64,000 bases of DNA from Felis catus. Lineage: Eukaryota. Of the stretch, positions 22,133-50,840 are shown in pieces; the first letter of the stretch is position 1, and every line of letters begins with the position of its first letter. Both the position numbers and the translations under genes were made by a program. A model generated the notes under the pieces. That model was not told the DNA's origin. It saw nothing but the letters and a program-made list of their open reading frames with translations, and searched no databases. The stretch spans positions 31,992,001 through 32,056,000 of the forward strand of contig NC_058372.1 of the NCBI RefSeq assembly GCF_018350175.1, given 5' to 3'.

Positions 22133-25100
22133 ATGACGACGCCGGCGAATGCCCAGAATGCCAGCAAAACGTGGGAACTGAGTCTATACGAGCTCCACCG
22201 GACCCCGCAGGTGATAGGGACTTTCCTTTCACAGCTTACTCCCTTTCCCCAAACCCTTCAAACAGACCCCTATCTCACAGCCTCTTTTCCATTTTTCGCC
22301 CTATTCTGCCGACCCTGCCGGATGTCACAGACTCCCTTGACCCCACCTTTGAATCACCTTAATCTTTTCCAAGCACTTTCACATTTATCTCGTTTCGTTC
22401 TCACATCAGCTATTGCCACAGATGTAGGGCGACTATGACTGCCTTCATCTGAAAAATAGTAAACACATAGATATTACCTTCAGTGTTCCTCAGTTCAGTG
22501 TCAAAGGTCAATGCATATAAGACTTTCCTTCCAAGTTTACTAGAAATGGAGCCCTCCCCTGCGCAACCCACCCCCTCACCACGCCTTGCCAAATTTCTGA
22601 TACCATAATGAGATGGGGCCCCAGAATCTGTGTTTTAAACAAGCACCATAGGGTATTCTGATACAGGTTGCACCCAGACCACACTTTAAGAAATTAGATT
22701 GAAGAAGTCTTCCCCAAACCCCACATCTGTGCCACCTCTGCCCCAGACCTCTGACCAAACCTCAGATCCTCCTGTTGCAAAGCTCCTACTTTCAGTTAAT
22801 GGACACTACTCCTTTCTGTTCTCCATTCTCTCCAAGTCACTAGCTCCTCTTTCTCAGAATTCCCGTCTTCCTCAAGTGGTCAACACGGGGTACCCAGATT
22901 CTGCTATTTCACTGTATTTCTCAAAACTCCCATTCCATTGACCACCTGTTTCTAAAACCCCTTTCCCCCCAACCCACCATCACCTTTCCACTCACTGATG
23001 TCTCCAGGAAGCCATCATGGATGGCACAGAGATTGCGGTTTCCCCTCGGTCACTGCATTCAGAACTCATGTGCCCCATCTGCCTGGACATGCTGAAGAAT
23101 ACAATGACCACCAAGGAGTGCCTCCACCGATTCTGCTCCGACTGTATTGTCACGGCCCTGCGGAGCGGGTAATGGGAGGGATGTGTTTGACATGGGGTGA
23201 AGGGTACAGGGTTGGGGCCTCAGTGTCCTAGCGACTGAGACTGACTCGTTGAGGGCCTCCTCTCTCCCACCCCAGGAACAAGGAGTGCCCTACCTGCCGC
23301 AAGAAGCTGGTATCCAAGCGGTCTCTGCGGCCAGATCCCAACTTTGATGCCCTGATCTCTAAGATCTATCCCAGCCGGGAGGAATATGAGGCCCACCAAG
23401 ACCGGGTGCTCATCCGCCTCAGTCGCCTGCACAACCAACAGGCACTGAGCTCCAGCATTGAAGAGGGGCTGCGCATGCAGGCCATGCACAGGTTCGGGCC
23501 GGGAGAGAGGCGATAGCAGGGCTGGTGGGACAGATCCGTGGGTCAGACTCCTGGTGCCGTCTTTGCTGCCTGCCAGCTTCTAAACCTTAGCATCTTAATA
23601 GCTAACCACAGCCTGATTGTCAAGGTCTGGAAGCCGGGGGTGTAAATTGCAGCTTCCTAGTTAGCAACTGGTACTACTATTCTTAAAAAATTAGCTCACC
23701 CTCTAACTTTCTAGAAGTTAGAACAGTGGAGTGATTTTGAGCATAAACTCTGGATTCACCTTGCGGGGAATTAAATGACCTTCTAGGCCAGCATTGCTCG
23801 GTCTTTAATAAGCATCCAGATTACCAGAGGGTCTGTGAAAAATGCAAATTCTAATTCAGTAGGTCTGGAGTTGGGCCTGAAATTCTGCATTTCTACAAAC
23901 CTATGCGACTGGTTCTTGGAGTCCATGTGGAGAGGCAAGAGGCTGTGGTTGCACACAAGTTATCTAACATTTCTAAGCCTCAGTTTTCTCAACCATAAAT
24001 AGAATATAATCACCTGCTTCTAAGATTTGTACTATGTGAGGCGATCAGTGCAAAATACTTAGCAGTGTGTTTGGCGTGTAGTTAGTGTTTAATAAATATT
24101 AGGTGTCATCATTAAGATTTCCCTGATCTCTTGTTCTCTTAAGTTTAAAGTTTAAACCCCTTATCTGTGGTGCTTTCTAACCTCAACCACTTGCTTCTAC
24201 AGGGCCCAGCGTGTGAGGCGGCCGATGCCCGGGTCAGATCAGACCACCACGATGAGTGGGGGGGAAGGAGAGCCTGGGGAGGGAGAGGGGGATGGAGAGG
24301 ATGTGAGCTCAGACTCTGCCCCTGACTCTGCCCCAGGCCCTGCTCCCAAGCGACCCCGTGGCGGGGGTGCAGGGGGGAGCAGTGTAGGGACAGGGGGAGG
24401 TGGCACCGGCGGGGTGGGTGGGGGCGCCGGTTCTGAAGACTCTGGTGACCGGGGAGGGACTTTGGGAGGGGGAACCCTAGGCCCCCCAAGCCCTCCTGGG
24501 GCCCCCAGTCCTCCGGAGCCAGGCGGAGAAATTGAGCTCGTGTTCCGGCCCCACCCCCTGCTCGTGGAGAAGGGAGAATACTGCCAGACTAGGTGAGAGC
24601 CCTGTCTTTCCCCTGACCTCTGAGAAATCAAAAAGATCATATAGATGTCCATCAGAAGTGGGCTTCACCCAAACCCAGAAAGAAACCCTAACCCAGAAGC
24701 CCTTTTGGAAAATCCCCTACTTCCCTTTTCCATTTGTGGCTTCCTGTCCCCTAAACCTGCCTTCTTTCCCACTTCAGGTATGTGAAGACAACTGGGAATG
24801 CTACAGTGGACCATCTTTCCAAGTACTTGGCCCTGCGTATTGCCCTTGAGCGGAGGCAGCAGCAAGAAGCCGGGGAGCCAGGAGGGCCTGGAGGGGGCGC
24901 CTCTGATGCCGGGGGACCTGATGGGGGTGGTGGAGAGGGTGGGGGTACCGGAGGAGGTGACGGCCCTGAGGAGCCTGCCTTGCCCAGTCTGGAAGGTGTC
25001 AGTGAAAAGCAGTACACCATCTACATCGCCCCCGGGGGTGGAGCTTTCACGGTGAGAGCCTCTGAGGGCAGTGCTATAAGAGGGGAGAGGCTGGGAGGGT

Positions 25101-25455
25101 GGTCTGGGGCCACACAGACCCTGGATCCTGACCTCCTAACTAGCCCACCCTCCACTCTCCCTCTGCATCTCTCATCTCACGTCTGTGTCTTATCTTCTTC
25201 CTACTCACTCCCTATGCCCCTGCTTTACCCCACCTTTTTTATTATTCCTTTTTCTTTCTTCCTCCCTTGGTCACTTTCTCCCTCTCATTCATATCCTTTA
25301 CCACCTTCTCCAACTTTTTCTTACCCTGCCTCTCTCTTCTACCCCCTCTGTAGACACTGAATGGCTCGCTGACCCTGGAACTGGTGAATGAGAAGTTCTG
25401 GAAGGTGTCCCGGCCACTGGAGCTTTGCTATGCCCCCACCAAGGATCCAAAGTGA
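22133..25455 (+). CDS. RING1: E3 ubiquitin ligase RING1 (PRC1 subunit), complete, 406 aa
   Basis: Coding exons 22133-22210, 23008-23168, 23276-23491, 24203-24592, 24778-25051, 25354-25455, totalling 1221 nt. C3HC4 RING (CPICLDML...CLHRFCSDC...CPTC), Gly/Pro-rich linker, RAWUL end (...[12 protein letters not shown]). Non-coding exon 1 donor after 21962. Confidence 0.98.
23785..23935. mobile_element. MER5-type hAT-Charlie DNA transposon fragment in RING1 intron 4
   Basis: Contains aaaaatgcaaattctaattcagtaggtctggagttgggcctgaaattctgcatttct. Similar fragments at about 22590-22690 and 27815-27890. Confidence 0.65.
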
Positions 25456-26249
25456 CACCACAAGGGGACGTCAGAGGATGGGGACCAGGGGGTGTCCCTG
25501 TGTCCTGGCCCACCACCCCAGCTTCTTTGTTCCCCAGTGCCCCCCAGCCCAGACAGTCAGCAAGAGGACACAAATGAGGACAAGTGGCTTTTATACAAAG
25601 TGTCTATATCAGATTCTTCTATATTGTACAGAGTGGGGCATGCGCCCCCATCTACTGCCTTTTCTATTGCCCCTCAACCTCCCATCTCTACAAGATGTTG
25701 GGGAAGGTGAAGAACCCTCCCCTTCATGCTCCCCTACCAACAACAGATTTGCTTCTTTTCCTCTTTGAAACCTGCAGTTCTGTGTGTGTTTATCACGGGT
25801 GTACTAGAAGGGGTGGGGGGAGATTGGGGAGACAAGCTGGAAATCATGTGGAATCAACCTTGGAAATAGGGAGGAAATGTCAAAGGTTATTCACGGTATG
25901 TAAATCCCATTTTTCTGAGTCCCCAAATCAGCAAATATGTTCGAAACTAGCGGGGGACCAACCTATGAAGTTGAAAGGGACAGGGTGAAGAGGTAAGCGT
26001 TGTCCGAAGTCTTCTCAAACTTGCCCCCTAAAAGCTGAATCGCCCAGCTTGAGATCCAGGATTTAAAGACCAAAGGGAAAGCAGGAAAGTGGCTCGAGAG
26101 TAAGGCATGTTGGTAGACTCCAACGGGACCCACCGTAGTGTTTGGAAGGAGGATAATTTTTTCTCACTGCAAGAAGCTAGTTTCCATAGCTGGAAAGACA
26201 AGAGGGAGGGAAGTGGGGAGCGCTGCCAGAACCCCCGAGCTGGACATCT

Positions 26250-26700
26250 CGGCCGCCTCCCAAAGAAGGCGGACAGGACCAGGGACTACAGTTCCCAGGA
26301 GTGAGCGAGCCGATGCCCGCTGCGCCGCGGGCTGAGTGGAGGGAGGGCCGCGCGGGAGGTGTAGTTCTGTGCCTGTCCAGGCAGCGGCCCAGAGCTGAGG
26401 GGTGGGGGCGTCAAGTGAAGCCATCGCTGGCTCCGGGCCTCGAGTTCCGCGAGCGAGCCGGGCCCCAAGTCTGGGCGGGGGACGGGGTGCTCGGCTGCGC
26501 GCCGGGTCTCGGGCACTGCGGGGGTCGGGGAGGAGGACCGGCCTCCCCAGGAGTAACTGATGCTCCTTCTACCCCCTTCAGCCTCTCTGCCCCTCACTTC
26601 CTGTTTCCGTTGCCCTTCGCGCCCCCACCCGACCCGCCCCAAATTCCTGCGGCTCGCTCAGTTCTCCGCCCCGCTGGCAAAGAAGTCAGCCTCTCGATCT
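26250..26700. promoter_or_regulatory. Orphan CpG-rich promoter-like element downstream of RING1
   Basis: ACTACAGTTCCCAG at 26285-26298 (+), AACTACACCTCCC at 26354-26366 (-), tandem ETS CACTTCCTGTTTCCG at 26595-26609, GC boxes at about 26633 and 26664. Confidence 0.65.
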
Positions 26701-27361
26701 GATCCACAGACCCGAGGGCATCCCAGCCCACGCTTGGGATTTCTCTTTTCCCCTGGTCCCTAACACCTTCAATACCGACTGAGGGGCACCTCGAGCCCCA
26801 GCAAGTCTCGCAGACCTGATGGCCTGGAGCTCACCCCCAGAGCCCTCTCGCCCTGCAGAAATAGACAACACCCACTTCACCCCTGTAGGAGCCTCTTTCT
26901 GTGCCCGCTCCCCGGAACCCCTGATCTTGGCTCCTCTCCTCTCCAACCGCAGGTATCCAGCGGCTGGGGAGCTCCCGGGACGGTGGGTGGGGCGGGAGGA
27001 GAGGTGGGCGTTGTTCCTGAAGTTTCGAAGAGAGACAGAAACTGATGCGGAGGAGTCGGGAAGGATGGAAGGATACCGAGGTGGAAGTTGATGCGTATGT
27101 AATGAACCCGGCTTCTCCTCTGGTTCCAGGCGCTACCAGGAGCGTCAGCGCAGCCTCACGTTGCTCATTCCCTCGCAGCCTCTTCGGTCTCTGTTCCCCC
27201 GCCCTCTTGCTGAACTCTGGAACAGCCAGCTGCCCCTGGCCCCTGTATCTCCCTTCCTATGGCTTCTCTGTCCCTCCGCGGCTCCCCAGTCAACACCACC
27301 CCACCCTCCCCTTCTGTCCACTTCTCACATTTCGACCCCTGTCTCCTCTCTGCTGCCTCCA

Positions 27362-28256
27362 TGACTGAACTTTGAAGATGTGCCTGTTTATTTGGGTGAC
27401 ATCATATGGGAGACCTAGCAAACTGTTGCCCTAGGTAAATCTCCTTCACCCACGCAGGCAGGAAAGAATAACTACCCTACTTGACCAGGTGGTCTCCCTC
27501 CCCAGTGCTGGGAGAAGGAGGTGTTGTGGGGTGGGGGTTAGTTCAGATTCTGTTGCACCTCTAGCTTCCCTGCGTTAGTTCCCCAAATCTTTCAGCCTCT
27601 CTCAATTAAGCCTGCATATATAGATTAGGCAAAGCAAGAGATACAAAGTATACAAAAAAGCAATGGACTGTTTTGTTGAGGAACAACATACCTGCAGGAG
27701 GGTAACTAACAATGCAAAGGAGCAAGACAGAGAAAGAAAGGTTACTAGAGTCGGAGAGACCTGGGACGAAATCTTCACCCCGCCACTTAAACTGAGGGTG
27801 CTAACACATAAAACTCTGTAGGTGGGGCCATTGTGTTCTAACAAACCTTCCATGTGATTCTGATGTGCACCAAGGCAAAGAACCACTGCTGTAGGTGCTC
27901 CATGAGATGTTAGCTTTGTCCTTATAGGGTGAACGGCAAATGTCCCTCGAAGGGGCTCCATACCTCTGGAGCAGGGGGATCACTGGGAGCCTGTAGGGTG
28001 GTTAGGAAGGGCCTCACGGGGGAGGTGGGACCAGGCCAGCCAGGATCAATGAGAAGGGAAGAAGAAAGTCTTGGGTGGGGGAAGGGGTGGGGGGTGAGGG
28101 GGGAAACCTCTCTCTCTGTCTCTCTCTCTCTCTCTCATTTCTCTCTTTCTCTCTGTTACGCATCCACCTCCCCCCTTTTTCCTCGCCCAGGCTTCTCAGT
28201 CCCCAAACCGTGGCAGGTCGTGTGTCTGAGTGCAGAAAAACTTAGAACTCCTTCAG
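27362..28256 (+). pseudogene. Degenerate KRAB-domain exon remnants (fossil KRAB zinc-finger gene)
   Basis: 27365-27434 reads LNFEDVPVYLGDIIWET*QTVALG|gtaaat, matching the KRAB-A FEDVAVYFxxEEW register and phase-1 SLG|gt end. 28191-28256 follows a strong acceptor and reads GFSVPKPWQVVCL..., matching the KRAB-B GxxVSKPDLITCLE register, phase 1-1. No zinc-finger exon found. Confidence 0.55.
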
Positions 28257-28480
28257 GTACAAGTGTCCCAAGGACGTCTTCAGTGCGTGCCTTGCCCCCC
28301 CAGTGTTGTCAAGCCCCAACACAAGCACTTCCTGTCCTGTTATCTCTACTTATTTCATGAAATTGTTTTCTTCATGTCCTCTTCTTGTGCTGGGAAGCTG
28401 TTTCTTGTGCTGGGAACGCTGGGAAGCGTCCCCTCCCCATGGTGCCTCTGGCCCCAGCCTGGCACTGAGGAGGGTGCTGT

Positions 28481-28740
28481 TATTATTTATTTGTCATTCA
28501 CCTATTTATTTATTTATTTTTATTATTTTTTTTATTTATTTATGTTCATTCATGAGAGAGGGCGTGCCAAACAGTGTGAGCGGGGAAGGGGCAGAGAGAG
28601 AGGGAGAGACACAGAAACTGACACAGGCTCCAGCCTCTGAGCTATCAGCACGAGCTATTGATTCGAGGCTCAAACTCACGAACCGTGAGATCGTGACCTG
28701 AGCCGAAGTCGGACACTTGACTGAGCCACCCAGGCACCCC
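28481..28740 (-). mobile_element. CanSINE
   Basis: T-rich tail, (AG)n, and gagccacccaggcacccc end. Confidence 0.9.
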
Positions 28741-29149
28741 TACCATTCACCCTTTTAGAAGGTTCTGTTGGGGGAGTTGCTGCCTTGGGCAACACTTGCA
28801 GTAAGTTTATTGTTACCATTCACGTTAAAGGAAAAGGTAGACCTTAGTACTTGGGTTAACTCCCCCCTAAGTATACCCTTTAGAATTTGGCAGATTTCTC
28901 CCCATGATGTGTCAGAGAGGCTGATTATTGACACATAAAAGAAGCAAGGAAAGAACCTTTAGAGGCAAAAGGATCACTTGGGGGACTGCTGGTCAGTTTC
29001 ACCTTTTCAGGAAGTGTGTACTGAGTCCACACCACCTGTCAGGGGCTGTTCTGGGACCTGGGTCTTACAAACAGGCATCCTATGATGTAGCCCCTGCCTT
29101 TGAAAAATTTGACGTAGAGGTGTTCATGGCGAGCATGTCAATACTGAAT

Positions 29150-29905
29150 CCACCTCTAGTCTGATCAGTTGTATCCGTTAAAATATGTCTCAAGTCTGTC
29201 CCTTCTTGTCCATCCTTCCACCTCCCTGTTCCAGCCACCATCTGGACCATCTGGCTCCCCTCTGAATCACGGCAATAGCTGGAGAGGCTGGGAATGGCCT
29301 TCGAGAATACAAGCCCGCATACCTGTTAGGCCTTTTTGAAATGCAAATCCGATTGTTTCGGGCACCCTGCTTAAACCCATTCAGTGCTTTCCCATTGATT
29401 TTAGGTTAAAGACACAAGTCCTTAACCTGGCCTCGAAGGCCCTGCCTACTGTGATCCTGCGGGCCTTTCCGGACTCCTCTCCCACCACATTTCCACTCAG
29501 TCTGAAGACTCCACTTCCTGTCCGCTTTGCACTTCCTCCCGCAGACAGCCTTTGTGCAGGCTAGGCCCTCAGGCCTGAAAGGCTCTTCCTCCCATTTCTC
29601 TTTCAGCTAGCTCCTCTTCATTCCTCAGATCTCAGCTCCTCTGCCAATCCTCAGGAAAACTACCCTGACCTTCCTTCCTGGGTCAAATCCCCCTCTTCTG
29701 AGCCCCCACACCAAGGTGTACCTTTCCTCTGAGGCACTTGGCATAGTTGCAGTTCCGTGTTTGTTCATTATTTGATGGATGTCTGTCTCCCTGGAAGATG
29801 TAAGTGCTCTGAGGGCAGGGATCATGTCTGCAGATGCTCGCTCTTGTCATATTCAGGGGACCTCGAACTGGACACTCCATAAATATTGAGTTGAAATATT
29901 GGTTT
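29150..29905 (+). mobile_element. L2 LINE 3' fragment
   Basis: L2 3'-end motifs: aaatgcaaatccgatt...cttaaacccattcagtgctttccc...gtccttaacctggcc...ataaatattgagttgaa. Confidence 0.7.
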
Positions 29906-30664
29906 AATGGATGCCTGCGTGCCAGGATCTGGAGTAGGGGGCTACATATTTCAGAATCTCAGAGAGGATTGTTTGAGGCCACGATTCTCCCTCCAGCAAT
30001 GCAGCCCGGGAGTTCCATATGCCATTTTCTTAACACCATCACTTCCTCCATACTTCCTAGCATCATTCATCCCCACAGTCCCGGCTTCATCCCAGGCTTT
30101 CTCCATCTTGCCCATGAGACCCTTTCCTTTTAACTTTGTAATCCCCTTTTCTGGTCTTGCCTCATTGACTGCAGAAGGCAGCATGGAATAATGTGGCAAC
30201 AGCCCAGGATTCAGAACCGTACTGTGTTCAAAAGTATTAGTGGTGTGGCCTTTCTCAGGCTCTTGAACCACTCTGAACCCAAGCTTTGTTATCTATAAAA
30301 TGAGAACAGAATCAAGCAAGATGGAGGAATTAAAAATCTAAATGTACCATCACCTAGAAATACTGGATAAAATATGGGGGGAAAGTAAACATGACTGAGT
30401 TTTCAAAAGAAAAATAAAATCCCAAGTTCTAGAAATGAAGAGAAAACTGAAAGCCAGAGGATAAGCTGACCATGGTTGCTAGAAGGGGACTGGGAGAGAA
30501 TTGGTTCTATTAACTTAGAAATGTTTTACCAGCCACCCAAGGATGGGAGAGGAGGTTTTGGTCCTGAAGAGGTAGGGAAATTAGATGAACAGCGGCCAAA
30601 GCTGACTCAGAAGAAACAGAAAACCTGAACAGATCTATAAATTCTAATAAATTGAATGAGAAGT

Positions 30665-30698
<34 letters not shown>

Positions 30699-30726
30699 TT
30701 TACAGATGTATTATTCTGCCAACTCT

Positions 30727-31033
30727 TTTTTTTTTAATTTTTTTTCAACGTTTATTTATTTTTGGGACAGAGAGAGACAGAGCATGAACGGGGGAGGGGC
30801 AGAGAGAGAGGGAGACACAGAATCGGAAACAGGCTCCAGGCTCCGAGCCTGACGCGGGGCTCGAACTCACAGACCGCGAGATCATGACCTGGCTGAAGTC
30901 GGACGCTTAACCGACTGCACCACCCAGGCGCCCCTCTTTTTTTTTTTTAAAGTAAACTCTACGCCTAATGTGAAACTCACGATCTTGAAATCAAGAATCA
31001 CAAGCTCTACAGACTGAGCCACCCAGACATCCC
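30727..31033 (-). mobile_element. Young CanSINE inserted into the poly(A) tail of an older short SINE
   Basis: Full element 30727-30934 directly followed by a T-run and a degenerate short SINE ending gagccacccagacatccc. Confidence 0.85.
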
Positions 31034-31172
31034 TATTTTGCCAACTCTTACAAACCATTTGTTTATTTATAATACGTCTGTCCCAGACGATGAAGAGGGA
31101 CAGTCACACTTATAAAATTAAAATCCTGAATAAAATATTAGCAAACTGAATCTGGCAGAATCCGTGCAAGTG

Positions 31173-31206
<34 letters not shown>

Positions 31207-31269
31207 AGACCAAGAAGGGTTTATTGCAGGAACACAGGGATGGTGTACTTTAAAAATCTATTAATGAAA

Positions 31270-31301
<32 letters not shown>

Positions 31302-31371
31302 GAAAAAAGAAAGAACAAAGAAACAAAGAAAGAAAGATATTTACAACTGGATGTAGTAAAAGGAAAAAAAT

Positions 31372-31856
31372 GGGAGCACCTGGGTGGTTCAAGAGTCAGT
31401 TAAGAATCAGCTCAAGCGGGGCACTTGGGTGGCTCAGTCTGTTGAGCGTCCGACTTTGCTCAGGTCATGATCTCACGGTTCATGAGTTCGAGCCCCACAT
31501 CAGGCTCTGTGCTGACAGAGTCTGGAGCCTGCTTCAGATCTGTGTCCCTCTCTCTCTTTCTCTCTGCTCCTCCCCTGCTCACGTTCTGTCTCTCTCTCTC
31601 TCTCAAAACTAAATAAATGTTTTAAAAAATTTTTTTAAAAAAAGAATCAGCTCAAGAGTCAGTTAAGCATCCAACTCTTGATTTCCACTCAGGTCATGAT
31701 CTCACAGTTTCATGTGTTTGAGCCCTGTGTGGGCTTTGAGCTGAGAGTAAGAAACCTGCCTGCAATTCTCCCTCTGCCCTGCTCCTCCCCAGCTCATACT
31801 CTCTCTGTCTCTCCCAAAATAAATAAATAAACTTTATAATAAATAAATAAATAGGA
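31372..31856 (+). mobile_element. CanSINE nested inside another CanSINE
   Basis: Inner element 31417-31641 flanked by TSD AAGAATCAGCTCAAG (31402-31416 and 31642-31656); the outer element resumes afterwards. Confidence 0.85.
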
Positions 31857-32966
31857 AAAAATGATTGTCCCAGTAGCTTCAGAGAACACACTGGATGAAG
31901 TTTAACACTAATTCATTATTTTTTTTTTTTAAAAAAAATCCAGTTAACTAAGATGAGAAAATAACTTCCAAAGTCAAGACAAGGATAATGCTTTTTACTG
32001 TTTGTATTCAACTTGTTCTAGGGAGTCTGACCTGGCACAATAAGAAAACAAAGAAATAAAGCCATCACTACACATAGATACTTGATTAGTGACAAAGAAA
32101 ATTTATGAAAACCCACAAATAATTAGAACTAATACACCCCTTTCTGGGGACAAGATTAATATGCAAATATCAATATGCCTATATTACAACAACAAATAGA
32201 AGATTTTGTTTTTAAAAATTGCCATTTGGGGACACCTGCTTGGCTCAGCCAGTTAAGCCTCTGGCTCTTGGTTTCAGCTCAGGTTATGATTTCGTGAGTT
32301 CGAGCCATGTGTTGGGCTCCACTCTGGCAGTGGGAGTCTGCCTGGAATTCTCTCTCTCTCCCTCTCTCTCTGCCCCTCCCCCACTCAGCACTCGCAAGTT
32401 CTCTCAAAATAAATCAATTTTTTTAAAAGAGAGAAAAAGTCATTTGTAATAACAATGAAGACTATAGAATACTTAGAAATAAATACAACATGATTTTTAT
32501 GGAGAAAATGATAAAACCTGATTGGAGAACATTTTGAAAAGAAGACAAAAAATGACAGAGAGATATTCCATGCTCAAGAAGAGGCAAATTCGATATAAAG
32601 TTGGCAACTTTTCTCAAATATACAAATTTCAGTATAATTCTAATCAAAACCCCACCAATATATTTTACGGAACTTGACAAACTGTTCTTAACATTTTTAT
32701 AAAGAAGTAAATGGCCAAGAAAAGCCAATACAAGTTTGAAGTGGAAGAATACCAGGGTGCTAGCCTTACCACATATCACAACTTTACTATAAAACCAGAG
32801 TGATTAAAGCAGTGTAGTCCTGGCACATGGGCAAATAACTAGACCACTGTTACAGACTAGAACTTCTTGGAATTAGACCTTTAAAGACATGTGAACTTGG
32901 CATATGACAAAAGTGATGTACAATCGGTGGAAAAGGATGGACTGTCTGTTAAATTGTCTCGGGGCA

Positions 32967-33186
32967 GGGGCGCCTGGGTGGCGCAGTCGGTTAAGCGTCC
33001 AACTTCAGCCAGGTCACGATCTCGCGGTCCGGGAGTTCAAGCCCCGCGTCGGGCTCTGGGCTGATGGCTCAGAGCCTGGAGCCTGTTTCCGATTCTGTGT
33101 CTCCCTCTCTCTCTGGCCCTCCCCCGTTCATGCTCTGTCTCTCTCTGTCCCAAAAATAAATAAAAAAACGTTGAAAAAAAAAAATT
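32967..33186 (+). mobile_element. Young felid-type CanSINE
   Basis: ggggcgcctgggtggcgcagtcggttaagcgtcc...gtcccaaaaataaat with CpGs largely retained. An older copy lies at 32227-32420. Confidence 0.95.
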
Positions 33187-33854
33187 AAAAGTGCCTGCCT
33201 CCTGACATTGCAGAGAATGTTAAGTAAGTTACTGGCAAGTGCTTGGAACATTTCCTAACTTAGACTAAGTACTCTAGAAGTTTGTTCTTGTTGACAACGA
33301 TGATGTTAGAGTTCTTAACTATCACCTCCAGCTGCATATAATTTCTTTTTTAATCTCAAGTTTTAAAATCTCATAAGAACCGCATTTGGCAATGAAAGTG
33401 CCCAGTATCTGAGATGACCCAAACGCTGCCTTCAAGGACCTAAATTAAGGACTGCAAACTCCCATTTCTGTGAAGGCCAGGCAGGTAATGTGCCAAGTGC
33501 CAGGGTAAGGTTATCTGGGGAGGCAGCAGCTCCTGGTCAGGTGCTGCCACGAAGGAATTCGGAGCCAGCATTACCACATTTAAAGCTTTTTTTTTTTTTT
33601 TATGAAAAGCTATAAATCCCAATTTTTCTGTAAAATTTCTCAATTTTTAAGTGTTATAATTTATTCAAAAGAATAATAAAAGCACATTGTGAACCAAATG
33701 AAATACTTGAGTGGGCTGTCAGTTTCTGAGCTGTGAGACGGAGGCTGGCACAGAGACAGATGTATGAGCGGGTCTTAAAACTACAGTGTAATTAGAGCTA
33801 CAATAAAGGTGAGTGACAGAGTGCCATGGGAGTGGGGGGGGAGGGCGGGGTTGA

Positions 33855-42512: not shown

Positions 42513-43280
42513 ATGAGTGGCAACCACGTGGATGGGAAGGGGGAGTTTCACGAGCAGTTGTGAATGCAAGAATTATACGGAGACGCCAAGATCCCGGTGG
42601 AAAAATGGAAGCTTTCAGGTTGCAAGCCAGCTGACACCGCCTATCACTGGGATCTGGATAAGGAGCCTTCACTCCCTAAGGTCACGGGAGGTTAGATTGC
42701 TACACATCAGGCCACTTATGGCTTCTCTAATGATGACACATCTAGCTCTCCTGCAAGTGTCCAAGGTATCGATGCTAAGGATGCGGAGGAACTCCTGCAA
42801 AGAAAAACCCCAAACCCACAGATCCCCAAAGAAGGGAGCTAAGAGAAAGGAAGAATCAAGATAGTTTCAGGTTGAGGAAGATAGGAATACAAATGTATTT
42901 TATCTTACAGTGGATGGGCTTATACAGCTTTTCCAAATCCTGCATTATTATGAGAGATCCTCAGAAGGATTCAAGGTCAAGCTTTACAAAGATAACCAAA
43001 AAAGTCTTACAGGAGATGGGCTTTGCTGTTACTTCAAGATCCTTACTTGGAGAGGGATCTGCAAACCTCGCATTAAATAAAGATGAGATTAGAGACTACA
43101 AAGTTCATGTCAGGGTTGCAAAGTTTCAAGCTGAAGGAAGAATATGATGTCTCAAAAAAGTGCAGAGGCTACAAGAAGACATCCTTACGCACCACGATTA
43201 GAGCAGCTCAGACGAGGTGTCTGCTCTTTGTAGGTCCTGGGTGAGGCCCTGTGGCTACAGGTCCAAGAATGAGAGAAAAC
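42513..43280 (+). pseudogene. Processed pseudogene of HTATSF1 (Tat-SF1), N-terminal/RRM1 portion
   Basis: MSGNHVDGKGEFHEQL*MQELYGDAK from 42513 (TGA at 42561) resembles recalled HTATSF1 MSGTNLDGNDEFDEQLRMQELYGDGK. Further blocks YHWDLDK, IATHQATYGFSND, KRKEESR*FQVEEDRNTNV, CIIMRDPQ, FKVKLYKDNQ..GDGLCCY and DEIRDYKVHV.VAKFQ are colinear and intron-free, with stops and frameshifts. Confidence 0.9.
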
Positions 43281-43949
43281 TCAGAAACAAAAAATGGAGA
43301 CAGTGACACTTCCAGGTAAAATGATGAGAAGTGTTCTGAAAGCAAAGGAGGAAAAAGGAGCTTGGAACCAGGGAGGATTTCAAAAGTCCAGAGATTTCTT
43401 GAAGGACAGGACACATCTGGAGATGAGGAACAGAAATCATGCAGTGGCAAAAGCAATTGCCAAGGGGCTCAAGCACAGGGGCGCAGGGAAGAGCTGGTGA
43501 CAATGCCCACAGATGCTAAGTTTGTAGAACTTATACTGGACTATTAATGAGGCCAACGACTGATCCCTGTCCTGTCCTGATCCTGTCCCTGCCCCTGAGG
43601 GAGGCCCTCCACAGGGTTCTGGGATATACATGGGAGGGACAACATCTTCTCAGGTCTTCTCTGTGCAGATATGGGGATCTCCTACCTCCTGAACTAATAG
43701 CTCCAGGGGTGACCTATCCGTGTTTCCTTCAAGGAGCTGCTGCTCCCCGTCTCCTATAGGTGGTCTATATTGAGGATCTGCAGGAACCCGATGAGAGCCC
43801 TGGATCTGAACACTCCATGAACATCTCTGTAGCTGTGTCCTGATTTCTCTCACCACACCCCACCTCTCAGCAGCAGTGTCTGACTCTGATCAAGATCCTG
43901 AACTGAAAGTTGAACCCGGATCCTAATTCCATTTTAAAGACAATAGGAT

Positions 43950-48235: not shown

Positions 48236-48939
48236 CGCTCCCCGCCAAAAAAAAAAAAAAAAAAAAGAAAAAAACTTTAAAAAGGGCGGGGCGGGGTGTA
48301 GGCTGAAGGAAAACTCTCAGTTGCTTCAGTGTGAAGGGAGCATGAGAAAAGCTTCCTAGTCTTCTTCAGCAAGACGAGGCATCAGAGCCTGTGAACTGGG
48401 AACGACCCCATCTCCTGGTCGATGCTGCCCCCTGGAGGTCGATGTGGATGTCGCGGCTCCCTTTCACGCAGTTATGTCTCCTCATCCGGGTCCCGAGAGA
48501 CTGTTGGATGAGCGTTCTTATGGATTCTCCCGGCGAGTTCCATGTCCCCGAAAACTATGTGCATACCTCCGGGTTCCCTCATCAAGGGTCTCCTCATACT
48601 ACAGCACTGCCCCTCAGTGAGCCCTGCAAAATAACGCGCTTACCGCTCGTCTGAATATTTGGGTTCGGAGATGGATAGAAGTGGTCTGTAGTGCGCGAAA
48701 TCAAAGTGCCTGCCTGCACAGCCCTTGTCCCATCCGAACATTAGTTGACTTTCGATGCAGTCTCCTGTCTTGGAGGCAGTCCCCCTCGACCCTTTCTCTG
48801 GGAACCCGCTGTTTTGTCAAAGCGGCCTGTGCCTCCCCTGTCCCAAGTCCCAGACCCTGAGCGAACCTCCTTCTGTGCCCCTCACGCTGAGGCTGCAGTC
48901 AGATCAAATGTGATGAACATCTGGATCCGCTAAGGTTGA

Positions 48940-49670
48940 GAGCTAAAAGTGGGGAGGGTGTAGGTGGGCGAGGAATGAGAAGTGGGAAAGGAAGGCGGAG
49001 GGACAGAGTTCCGGGGGAGAGCTTGCGGGCCCCTCTGAGCCCAGCACACCACCACCACCGCCTAGCACGCGGCAGGCCTCAGGGAATGTGTGGGGCAGAG
49101 TCAGGCAGGGTAAACCTGGAAGCACGCCGAGAGCAGGGAGCAAGGGGCGGAGGCGCCGGGTGAGGTCAGTTAAGGACACTGCCCTGGTTCCGCCTCTGAA
49201 GCATCTGGGCCAATCAGGAGACGCCGACAGTCCCCCCAAATCACCCCGTCCCCGCCGCACTTTAGCCTCGGGCGCCCAGGCTCTCAAAGCAGTGAGGAGG
49301 CAGCTTTGATGTCCGGCTTCCAATCACAGTGCGGCTCTCGGAGATGGGGCGGAACCCAAAGAAGGCGGGAGCGAGAGAAGGCACACCATCCGCCACGCCC
49401 CCACCCCGCAGCAGCCAACCCAGAGAGTCTGCCAGGCGGTACAGTTCCTACTCGGCCAACCCGCACGCCTACCTTTCTCTCCACCTCCCGCGCCCTGGGC
49501 GGTTAAGGACCCAGCCTTCAGACTCTGGCGGCGCCTTCCAGGAACCCCCCACCCCGCCCCTGCCTTGGCAGGCCGGGCCCGCATCCAGAAGGCCTAAGCG
49601 GGAAGCAGAAATCATTTTCCTTCCATCACTCGCTGGCACCTGGGAAGGAATCCTCAGGCTATAAGGGGAG
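48940..49670. promoter_or_regulatory. Orphan CpG-rich promoter-like element near the VPS52 3' end
   Basis: CCAAT at 49210-49214 and 49320-49324; GGGGCGG at 49144-49150 and 49346-49352; CCCCGCCCC at 49552-49560; TATAAG at 49660-49665. No adjacent sense ORF. Confidence 0.6.
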
Positions 49671-50190: not shown

Positions 50191-50840
50191 GGGGGGCGCC
50201 TGGGTGGTTTAGTTGGTTAGGCATCCAACTTTGGCTCAGGTCATGATCTCACAGTTGGTGAGTTCGAGTCCCGTCGGGCTCTGTTGACAGCTGGGAGCCT
50301 GGAGCCTGCTTCAGATTCTGTGTCTCCCTCTCTCTCTCTGCCCTTCCCCTGCCTGCACTCTGTCTCCATATCAAAAGTAAATAAACGTTAAAAAATTAAA
50401 AAAAAAAAAAAAGTTTACTACCAGTACCCCTTCCTTATGGACACCCATCAGAAGGGAGGTAAGCCCAGGAGGTAGCCTGAGAGGAAAGGTGACCCTGGAA
50501 CAGAGATGGGGCCACTTGAAGGCCCAAGGAGGAAAGAGGAAGGAAATGGGAAAGGTGTGTTACGTCATATTAAATATTTATTGTTTTCTGCAAACTGACC
50601 TTGGAGTAACTCTCAAGCCAGGAGGGGATTGGTTAGTGTTCAAGTTGCTGAGATCTTAGGTCAAAAAGCCATAGAAAAGGGGCACCTCGGTGGCTCAGTC
50701 ATGTTCTCTTGGTTCGTGAGTTCAAACCCTGCATCAGGTTGCTGCTGTCAGTGCACAGCCCGCTTGGATCCTCTGTCCCCCCACCTCTGCCCCTCCCACA
50801 CTTACACTCTCTCAAAAATAAATATTAAAAGAAAAAAAAA
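50191..50840 (+). mobile_element. Two CanSINEs at the VPS52 3' end
   Basis: 50191-50412 and the internally deleted 50679-50840; the second lies between the VPS52 stop codon and its candidate poly(A) signal. Confidence 0.88.

Follow-up and report, generated by a model that had tools for sequence, protein, structure and literature searches.

The window analysed here is a 64-kb stretch of the Felis catus genome (G000:C13:31992001-32056000), and positions given without a contig are counted within it, from its start at 31992001. The candidate locus lies just downstream of RING1. In the upstream gene, a RING-finger exon at 23008-23166 matched RING2 chains in a PDB search (E 1.5e-32), and the last coding exon, which ends near 25455, gave a RAWUL match in Pfam; because these two matches go together with an N-terminus that we take to be that of RING1, the gene was called RING1. 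A broken intronless copy of HTATSF1 was observed further downstream on the plus strand (42780-43500; PDB match near 42880-43040, E 3e-09), and if a human HTATSF1 pseudogene sits at the same place, as we assume, the copy would be an old shared insertion. Between this copy and the 3′ end of VPS52, a second CpG-rich and GC-box-rich stretch is present at 48400-49600, with no assigned gene. ZBTB9, ZBTB22 and VPS52 are the names that we presume for genes of the region. The minus-strand gene ending near 50570 was taken as VPS52 from the gene order in Table 1 of the cat MHC annotation, where no gene appears between VPS52/ARE1 and RING1, the RING1 model is 26 kb long, and the map begins at KIFC1 (PMC2453318). 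VPS52 and RING1 carry consecutive gene ids in a bat gene table (PMC5437515). Judged by its SINEs and gene order, the window appears to belong to the extended MHC class II region.

CpG island and KRAB-like blocks

Inspection of the sequence downstream of RING1 revealed a CpG island at 26121-26820, with a weaker CpG-rich tail to 27340 and no annotated gene. It agrees with the orphan promoter-like stretch that the original prediction had placed at the head of a fossil KRAB zinc-finger (KRAB-ZNF) gene, its promoter activity being putative. Within the island, ACTACAnnTCCCA at 26285-26297 on the plus strand matches a motif of the THAP11 site or ZNF143 SBS2 type, and a second, inverted copy, ACTACAnnTCCC, lies at 26353-26365 on the minus strand. 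These are the only two matches to the pattern ACTA(C/T)(A/G)nnnCCC(A/G) in the 64-kb window, 80 nt apart. The ACTA-type pattern is reported as the THAP11/ZNF143 SBS2 motif, and KRAB-ZNF promoters are reported to show an enrichment of ZNF143 peaks (PMC3627581). In our sample from this genome, the motif occurred in 3 of the 16 islands that precede an intact KRAB exon and in 1 of 25 neighbouring islands, a weak enrichment that is suggestive only. At the level of sequence, then, the candidate has what KRAB-ZNF genes often have, a putative CpG-island promoter with ZNF143/THAP11 sites. A strong donor, AG/GTAAGC, was noted at 25990, upstream of the island.

The original prediction placed a start exon at 26953-27080 (+). 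Its letters are as described: a cag at 26950-26952, the sole ATG of the interval 27030-27060 at 27045, and a reading frame encoding MRRSREGWKDTE up to the phase-0 donor GAG/GTGGAA at 27080. This arrangement did not rise above chance, as 26250-27360 contains 21 pairs of an ATG and a phase-0 GT. The donor matches 3 of 7 consensus positions and ranks 45th of 152 GTs; the acceptor ranks 8th of 219 AGs, and CAG/GTATCC at 26952 can equally be read as a donor. The ATG has C at both −3 and +4. The start exon was therefore given no weight as evidence. An unspliced ORF of 107 codons runs from the same ATG (27045-27368, +), with a poor start context.

The KRAB-A-like block occupies 27362-27434 (+). It reads FEDVPVYL, an internal loss of about 16 codons, GDIIWET with a stop (equivalent to the RDVMLENY half), the loss of a further codon, and ALG before a phase-1 GT donor. 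In the frame from 27371, the translation is FEDVPVYLGDIIWET, a stop and QTVALG; the stop is a single TAG, and the donor, TAG/GTAAAT at 27434, is in phase 1. Alignment to one intact exon (locus L071) placed the lost acceptor at 27300-27361 (+), where a pyrimidine tract ends in tcca and the AG is absent. The predicted motifs, coordinates, single TAG, phase-1 donor and lost acceptor thus held, and two further details did not. The W had been put in the exact FEDVAVYFxxEEW register; this is contradicted by the unbiased profile described below, in which 27395-27418 scored +10.5 bits as RDVMLENY and −0.1 in the predicted register (+11.6 versus +1.3 with the all-exon profile). By these scores the W is at the L/W position of DVMLE in the RDVMLE half, and therefore the missing DNA is internal rather than after EEW. 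The shortfall, predicted as about 45 nt, was measured as 51 nt from the F to the donor (64 nt versus 115 nt in intact exons), divided into about 48 nt between FEDVPVYL and GDIIW and one codon before ALG. The lost middle is the EEW..QR..LY helix segment. A frameshifted KRAB-A copy inside an intact GC-rich KRAB cluster (L093, G000:C41:17805400-17805640) reads RDVMWETY, with its W at this same position.

The block alone is weak by standard searches. Pfam, which the original prediction named as a check, detected no KRAB family (PF01352) on any of 16 translations of 26200-33201 at E ≤ 10, and nhmmer recovered the two A halves with E values of 4.4 and 14, which placed them 5th and 10th among 19 matches in the window. 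A protein homologue search, a weak one needing exact 5-mers, returned four candidates, none at E ≤ 10. The PDB search gave no KRAB chain, only four chance-level matches to viral fibre protein (E 0.036-0.1). In a local profile alignment that allowed one long deletion, the block ranked first in the window with 29.7 or 31.6 bits; with the unbiased profile, this score was equalled by 1 control peak in 756 kb of real DNA and by 11 across 20 Mb of Markov sequence. With a stop, 51 nt absent and the acceptor lost, the block does not have the open frame and full 127-nt KRAB-A exon of a functional KRAB repressor.

The KRAB-B-like block follows at 28191-28256 (+), and here the predicted letters were confirmed: ccag/GFSVPKPWQVVCL at 28191 and the donor CAG/GTACAA at 28256 enclose 66 nt in phase 1-1. 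The profile signal, about 34 nt long, consists of the acceptor and GFSVPKP (to 28209), and the remainder fits poorly. The block ranked first in the window (22.9 or 28.5 bits); alone, it was equalled by 2 control peaks in 756 kb of real DNA and by 72 across 20 Mb of Markov sequence (unbiased profile). The GT...AG spacer between the blocks (27435-28190, +) is 756 nt long, and KRAB A-B introns span 139-1464 nt in 35 intact cat loci. Acceptors at 27130, 27928 and 29011 score at least as high as the one at 28191.

Chance level of the candidate exon pair

We then scored the two blocks jointly. At least 150 intact KRAB loci were found in the cat genome, from which 70 were taken without regard to the candidate and 26 were chosen for likeness to it. 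Loci failing the exon regular expression or the donor check were left out, so that 87 of 96 were kept for A and 35 for B, and duplicates were then merged. The unbiased profiles hold 60 A and 23 B exons picked regardless of the candidate, and the all-exon profiles 82 A and 33 B. A joint score required B to lie 100-1600 nt downstream of A on the same strand. The null sets were 20 Mb of order-6 Markov DNA and two 378-kb stretches of neighbouring real DNA, from which 22 kb with two nearby relics, presented below, were masked after scoring there.

The candidate pair scored 52.5 bits (unbiased) and 60.1 bits (all). No control peak reached these scores: the highest were 49.8 and 51.5 bits in Markov DNA and 47.8 and 45.8 bits in real DNA, and the next-best joint peak within the window was 42.3 and 46.4 bits. 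Over 880 kb of real DNA, the pair ranked first with all nine parameter sets, three of them without the long-deletion state; where decay was allowed most freely, its lead shrank to about 1 bit. When the null tail was extrapolated, it gave about 0.05-0.3 chance pairs per 20 Mb, which is about 0.001 per window and roughly 10-80 per genome. Either block singly is borderline, and the pair is beyond chance, a result that is strong locally and not absolute. The order found is that of KRAB-ZNF genes, A then B on the same strand, across an intron of usual length, with a phase-1 donor and a phase-1 acceptor. Among single loci, the intact L071 matched best for A (rank 1 of 89) and third for B (rank 3 of 37).

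These scores bear on the reading that the blocks resemble KRAB exons by chance, in a GC-rich setting, and that the island is a lncRNA promoter or a regulatory element of the RING1 region. Consistent with it are the missing Pfam match, the borderline single blocks and the absence of fingers. The test was also designed after the sequence was seen, with the long-deletion model and the all-exon profile chosen at that stage, and a genome-wide pattern derived from the B block itself matched an unrelated stretch (L074) besides the candidate, a circular search that we discarded. Against it, besides the empty control tail at the joint score, the test left no freedom in splice phases or spacing other than a 1.5-kb window, and the pyrimidine tract lies exactly where the lost acceptor is expected. 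We consider chance resemblance unlikely.

That the blocks come from an old transposon of low copy number, or from a fragment inserted as a retrocopy, is very improbable. Old repeats are poorly detected, and a stretch near 29332-29424, which we take to be L2-like, got one match; however, blocks and island are single-copy in the genome, and 25601-28100 gave no repeat matches in 1.28 Mb of DNA, a comparison in which very old repeats would be missed. The separation of the A and B pieces by 756 nt of intron-like DNA speaks against a retrocopy.

Search for a finger exon and transcripts, and neighbouring relics

As the original prediction had noted, no finger exon is visible. DNA and protein profiles built from 218 three-finger units detected no C2H2 finger relic in the entire 64-kb window (best E 2 and 0.3), and no Pfam finger family matched the 16 translations of 26200-33201. 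The same DNA profile does detect a fossil array nearby (E 2.5e-28), so the finger exon has either disappeared or changed beyond recognition, and the downstream exon with tandem C2H2 fingers that characterises KRAB-ZNF genes is absent. The acceptor at 29011 was tried as a finger-exon start and rejected, as its best match (31.5) was equalled by 79% of 33 control acceptors. A high-copy SINE with more than 500 matches occupies 28465-28748 in the downstream zone.

Part of the stretch is contained in 20 of the 24 sequencing runs listed. The four runs examined yielded shallow unspliced contigs at a depth of about 2-8; that two of these runs are RNA is only a guess, and X1, the deepest, may contain DNA. 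Poly(A) data contributed one read from 12.9 million records. The junctions 27080-27362, 27434-28191 and 27434-27928, by which the original prediction could be checked in RNA-seq, were absent from all four runs. A single contig skips 73 nt at 26403-26477, with non-canonical ends. That splicing still makes this a working gene, with a short peptide resembling KRAB or a spliced lncRNA as its product, is accordingly hard to credit, for the lncRNA as far as these four of the 24 runs go: the donor at 27434 and the acceptor at 28191 are intact and most runs touch the stretch, but the lost acceptor, in-frame stop, internal loss and the unspliced contigs of the four runs all stand against it, as does the 107-aa ORF from 27045, which has no Pfam match.

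Scoring of the control region turned up two clear KRAB relics on the minus strand, about 255-270 kb away, beyond the ZBTB9-like fingers. The first (L152, G000:C13:32288000-32290500) has a frameshifted A at 32289640 (88.7 bits; Pfam KRAB-A E 1.8e-06) and a B at 32288016. A CpG island that has a strong first donor contains it or immediately precedes it, and no finger array of its own stood out, the one weak match being at E 0.24. The second (L150, G000:C13:32272300-32275250) has an A at 32275063 (76.6 bits; Pfam KRAB-A E 7.2e-04) and a B at 32274576, together with the frameshifted C2H2 array used above as a positive control (near 32272300-32273500, nhmmer; fingers confirmed by Pfam). Its KRAB parts are closest to proteins named ZNF619/ZNF23. 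The unit may represent a separate, second gene, or it may supply the second KRAB of a single gene. For its finger array, 163 of 166 candidates were scored and none stands out as an intact orthologue, with a best identity of 47% among the 120 listed. Because the same method found these two Pfam-confirmed relics, dead KRAB-ZNF genes do occur in the neighbourhood. Their KRAB-A scores are 77-89 bits, compared with 30 for the candidate. The candidate was also considered as their paralogue and this was rejected: the matches listed were to SINEs, and the relic exons were not among the best matches.

Origin and fate of the locus

We conclude that the candidate is probably the 5′ remnant of an unprocessed KRAB-ZNF gene, which degenerated at its original site just downstream of RING1 and no longer codes for a KRAB protein. 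The original prediction of such a dead gene, with A and B remnants behind a CpG island, is supported by the calibrated pair test, although Pfam gave no match; its start exon and W register did not hold up. Because both a Pfam KRAB match and a finger exon are missing, we file it as a probable pseudogene fragment and not as a full family member. Like unprocessed KRAB-ZNF pseudogenes, it has A and B remnants ordered and in phase behind a CpG island, with a stop and splice loss; it differs in having no finger exon left and in a decay too deep for Pfam. The best DNA matches are the GC-rich FEDVAVYF/FADVAVYF lineages, namely L071, presumably ZNF316-like, and L091-L095, presumably of the ZNF688/764 group. 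They have F-E-D-V-x-V-Y, E-T-Y..A-L-G and G-F-x-x-P-K-P in common with the candidate, whereas several loci score closely and none has notable intron or promoter homology with it, so that a family is not assignable.

The gene would have arisen by genomic duplication of a GC-rich KRAB-ZNF gene. Its finger exon would then have been lost by deletion or decay, followed by long neutral drift, in which the CpG island may have outlived the gene through factor binding. The sites for sequence-specific factors would likely hold the island unmethylated, with a predicted output of at most weak, unspliced non-coding RNA. In simulated decay, held-out intact exons with the same internal loss dropped to scores like that of the candidate after about 0.3-0.4 substitutions per site, with a 10-90% range that covers 0.2-0.5, and scores like those of the full-length neighbours fitted about 0.1-0.2. 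The neutral distance of the cat lineage since the primate-carnivore split is about 0.2. The simulation fits an early death; it would come out differently for a more or a less typical ancestral KRAB, and it gives no date.

The human ZNF70P1, which we take to be ZNF314P, presumably lies just beyond RING1, and there too we assume that an HTATSF1-like pseudogene follows, as the HTATSF1 copy follows the candidate. ZNF70P1 is a zinc-finger pseudogene in the matching region, whereas the candidate has no finger sequence. ZNF314P is described as a zinc-finger pseudogene located in the class II/extended class II region and as absent in gorilla (PMC3626023), and with this absence the human pseudogene may be unrelated to the cat relic. 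A wider reconstruction is rather doubtful, namely that the extended MHC class II region once had at least three KRAB-ZNF genes, all dead in cats, that the death on the RING1 side preceded the primate-carnivore split, that ZNF70P1 is the lost finger exon, and that the island was kept as a regulatory element. LncRNAs from gene-loss relics offer a parallel, in that a promoter may survive the death of its coding gene, as proposed here; the candidate differs in having no spliced or clearly expressed RNA, and the main text of that report mentions neither ZNF nor KRAB (PMC10195156). Literature searches turned up no account of a relic beside RING1. The relic is likely an ordinary type of pseudogene, absent from the published maps of the region.

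If the relic is real, a lost repressor gene would account for an orphan CpG island of the MHC, which would have been its promoter, and exon-pair scoring would be able to recover KRAB relics that have decayed below the reach of Pfam. Together with the two clearer relics, it would place vanished KRAB-ZNF genes in a region whose maps show none, and unless the island has a regulatory job, it would be a footnote to the history of the MHC and of the KRAB-ZNF family.
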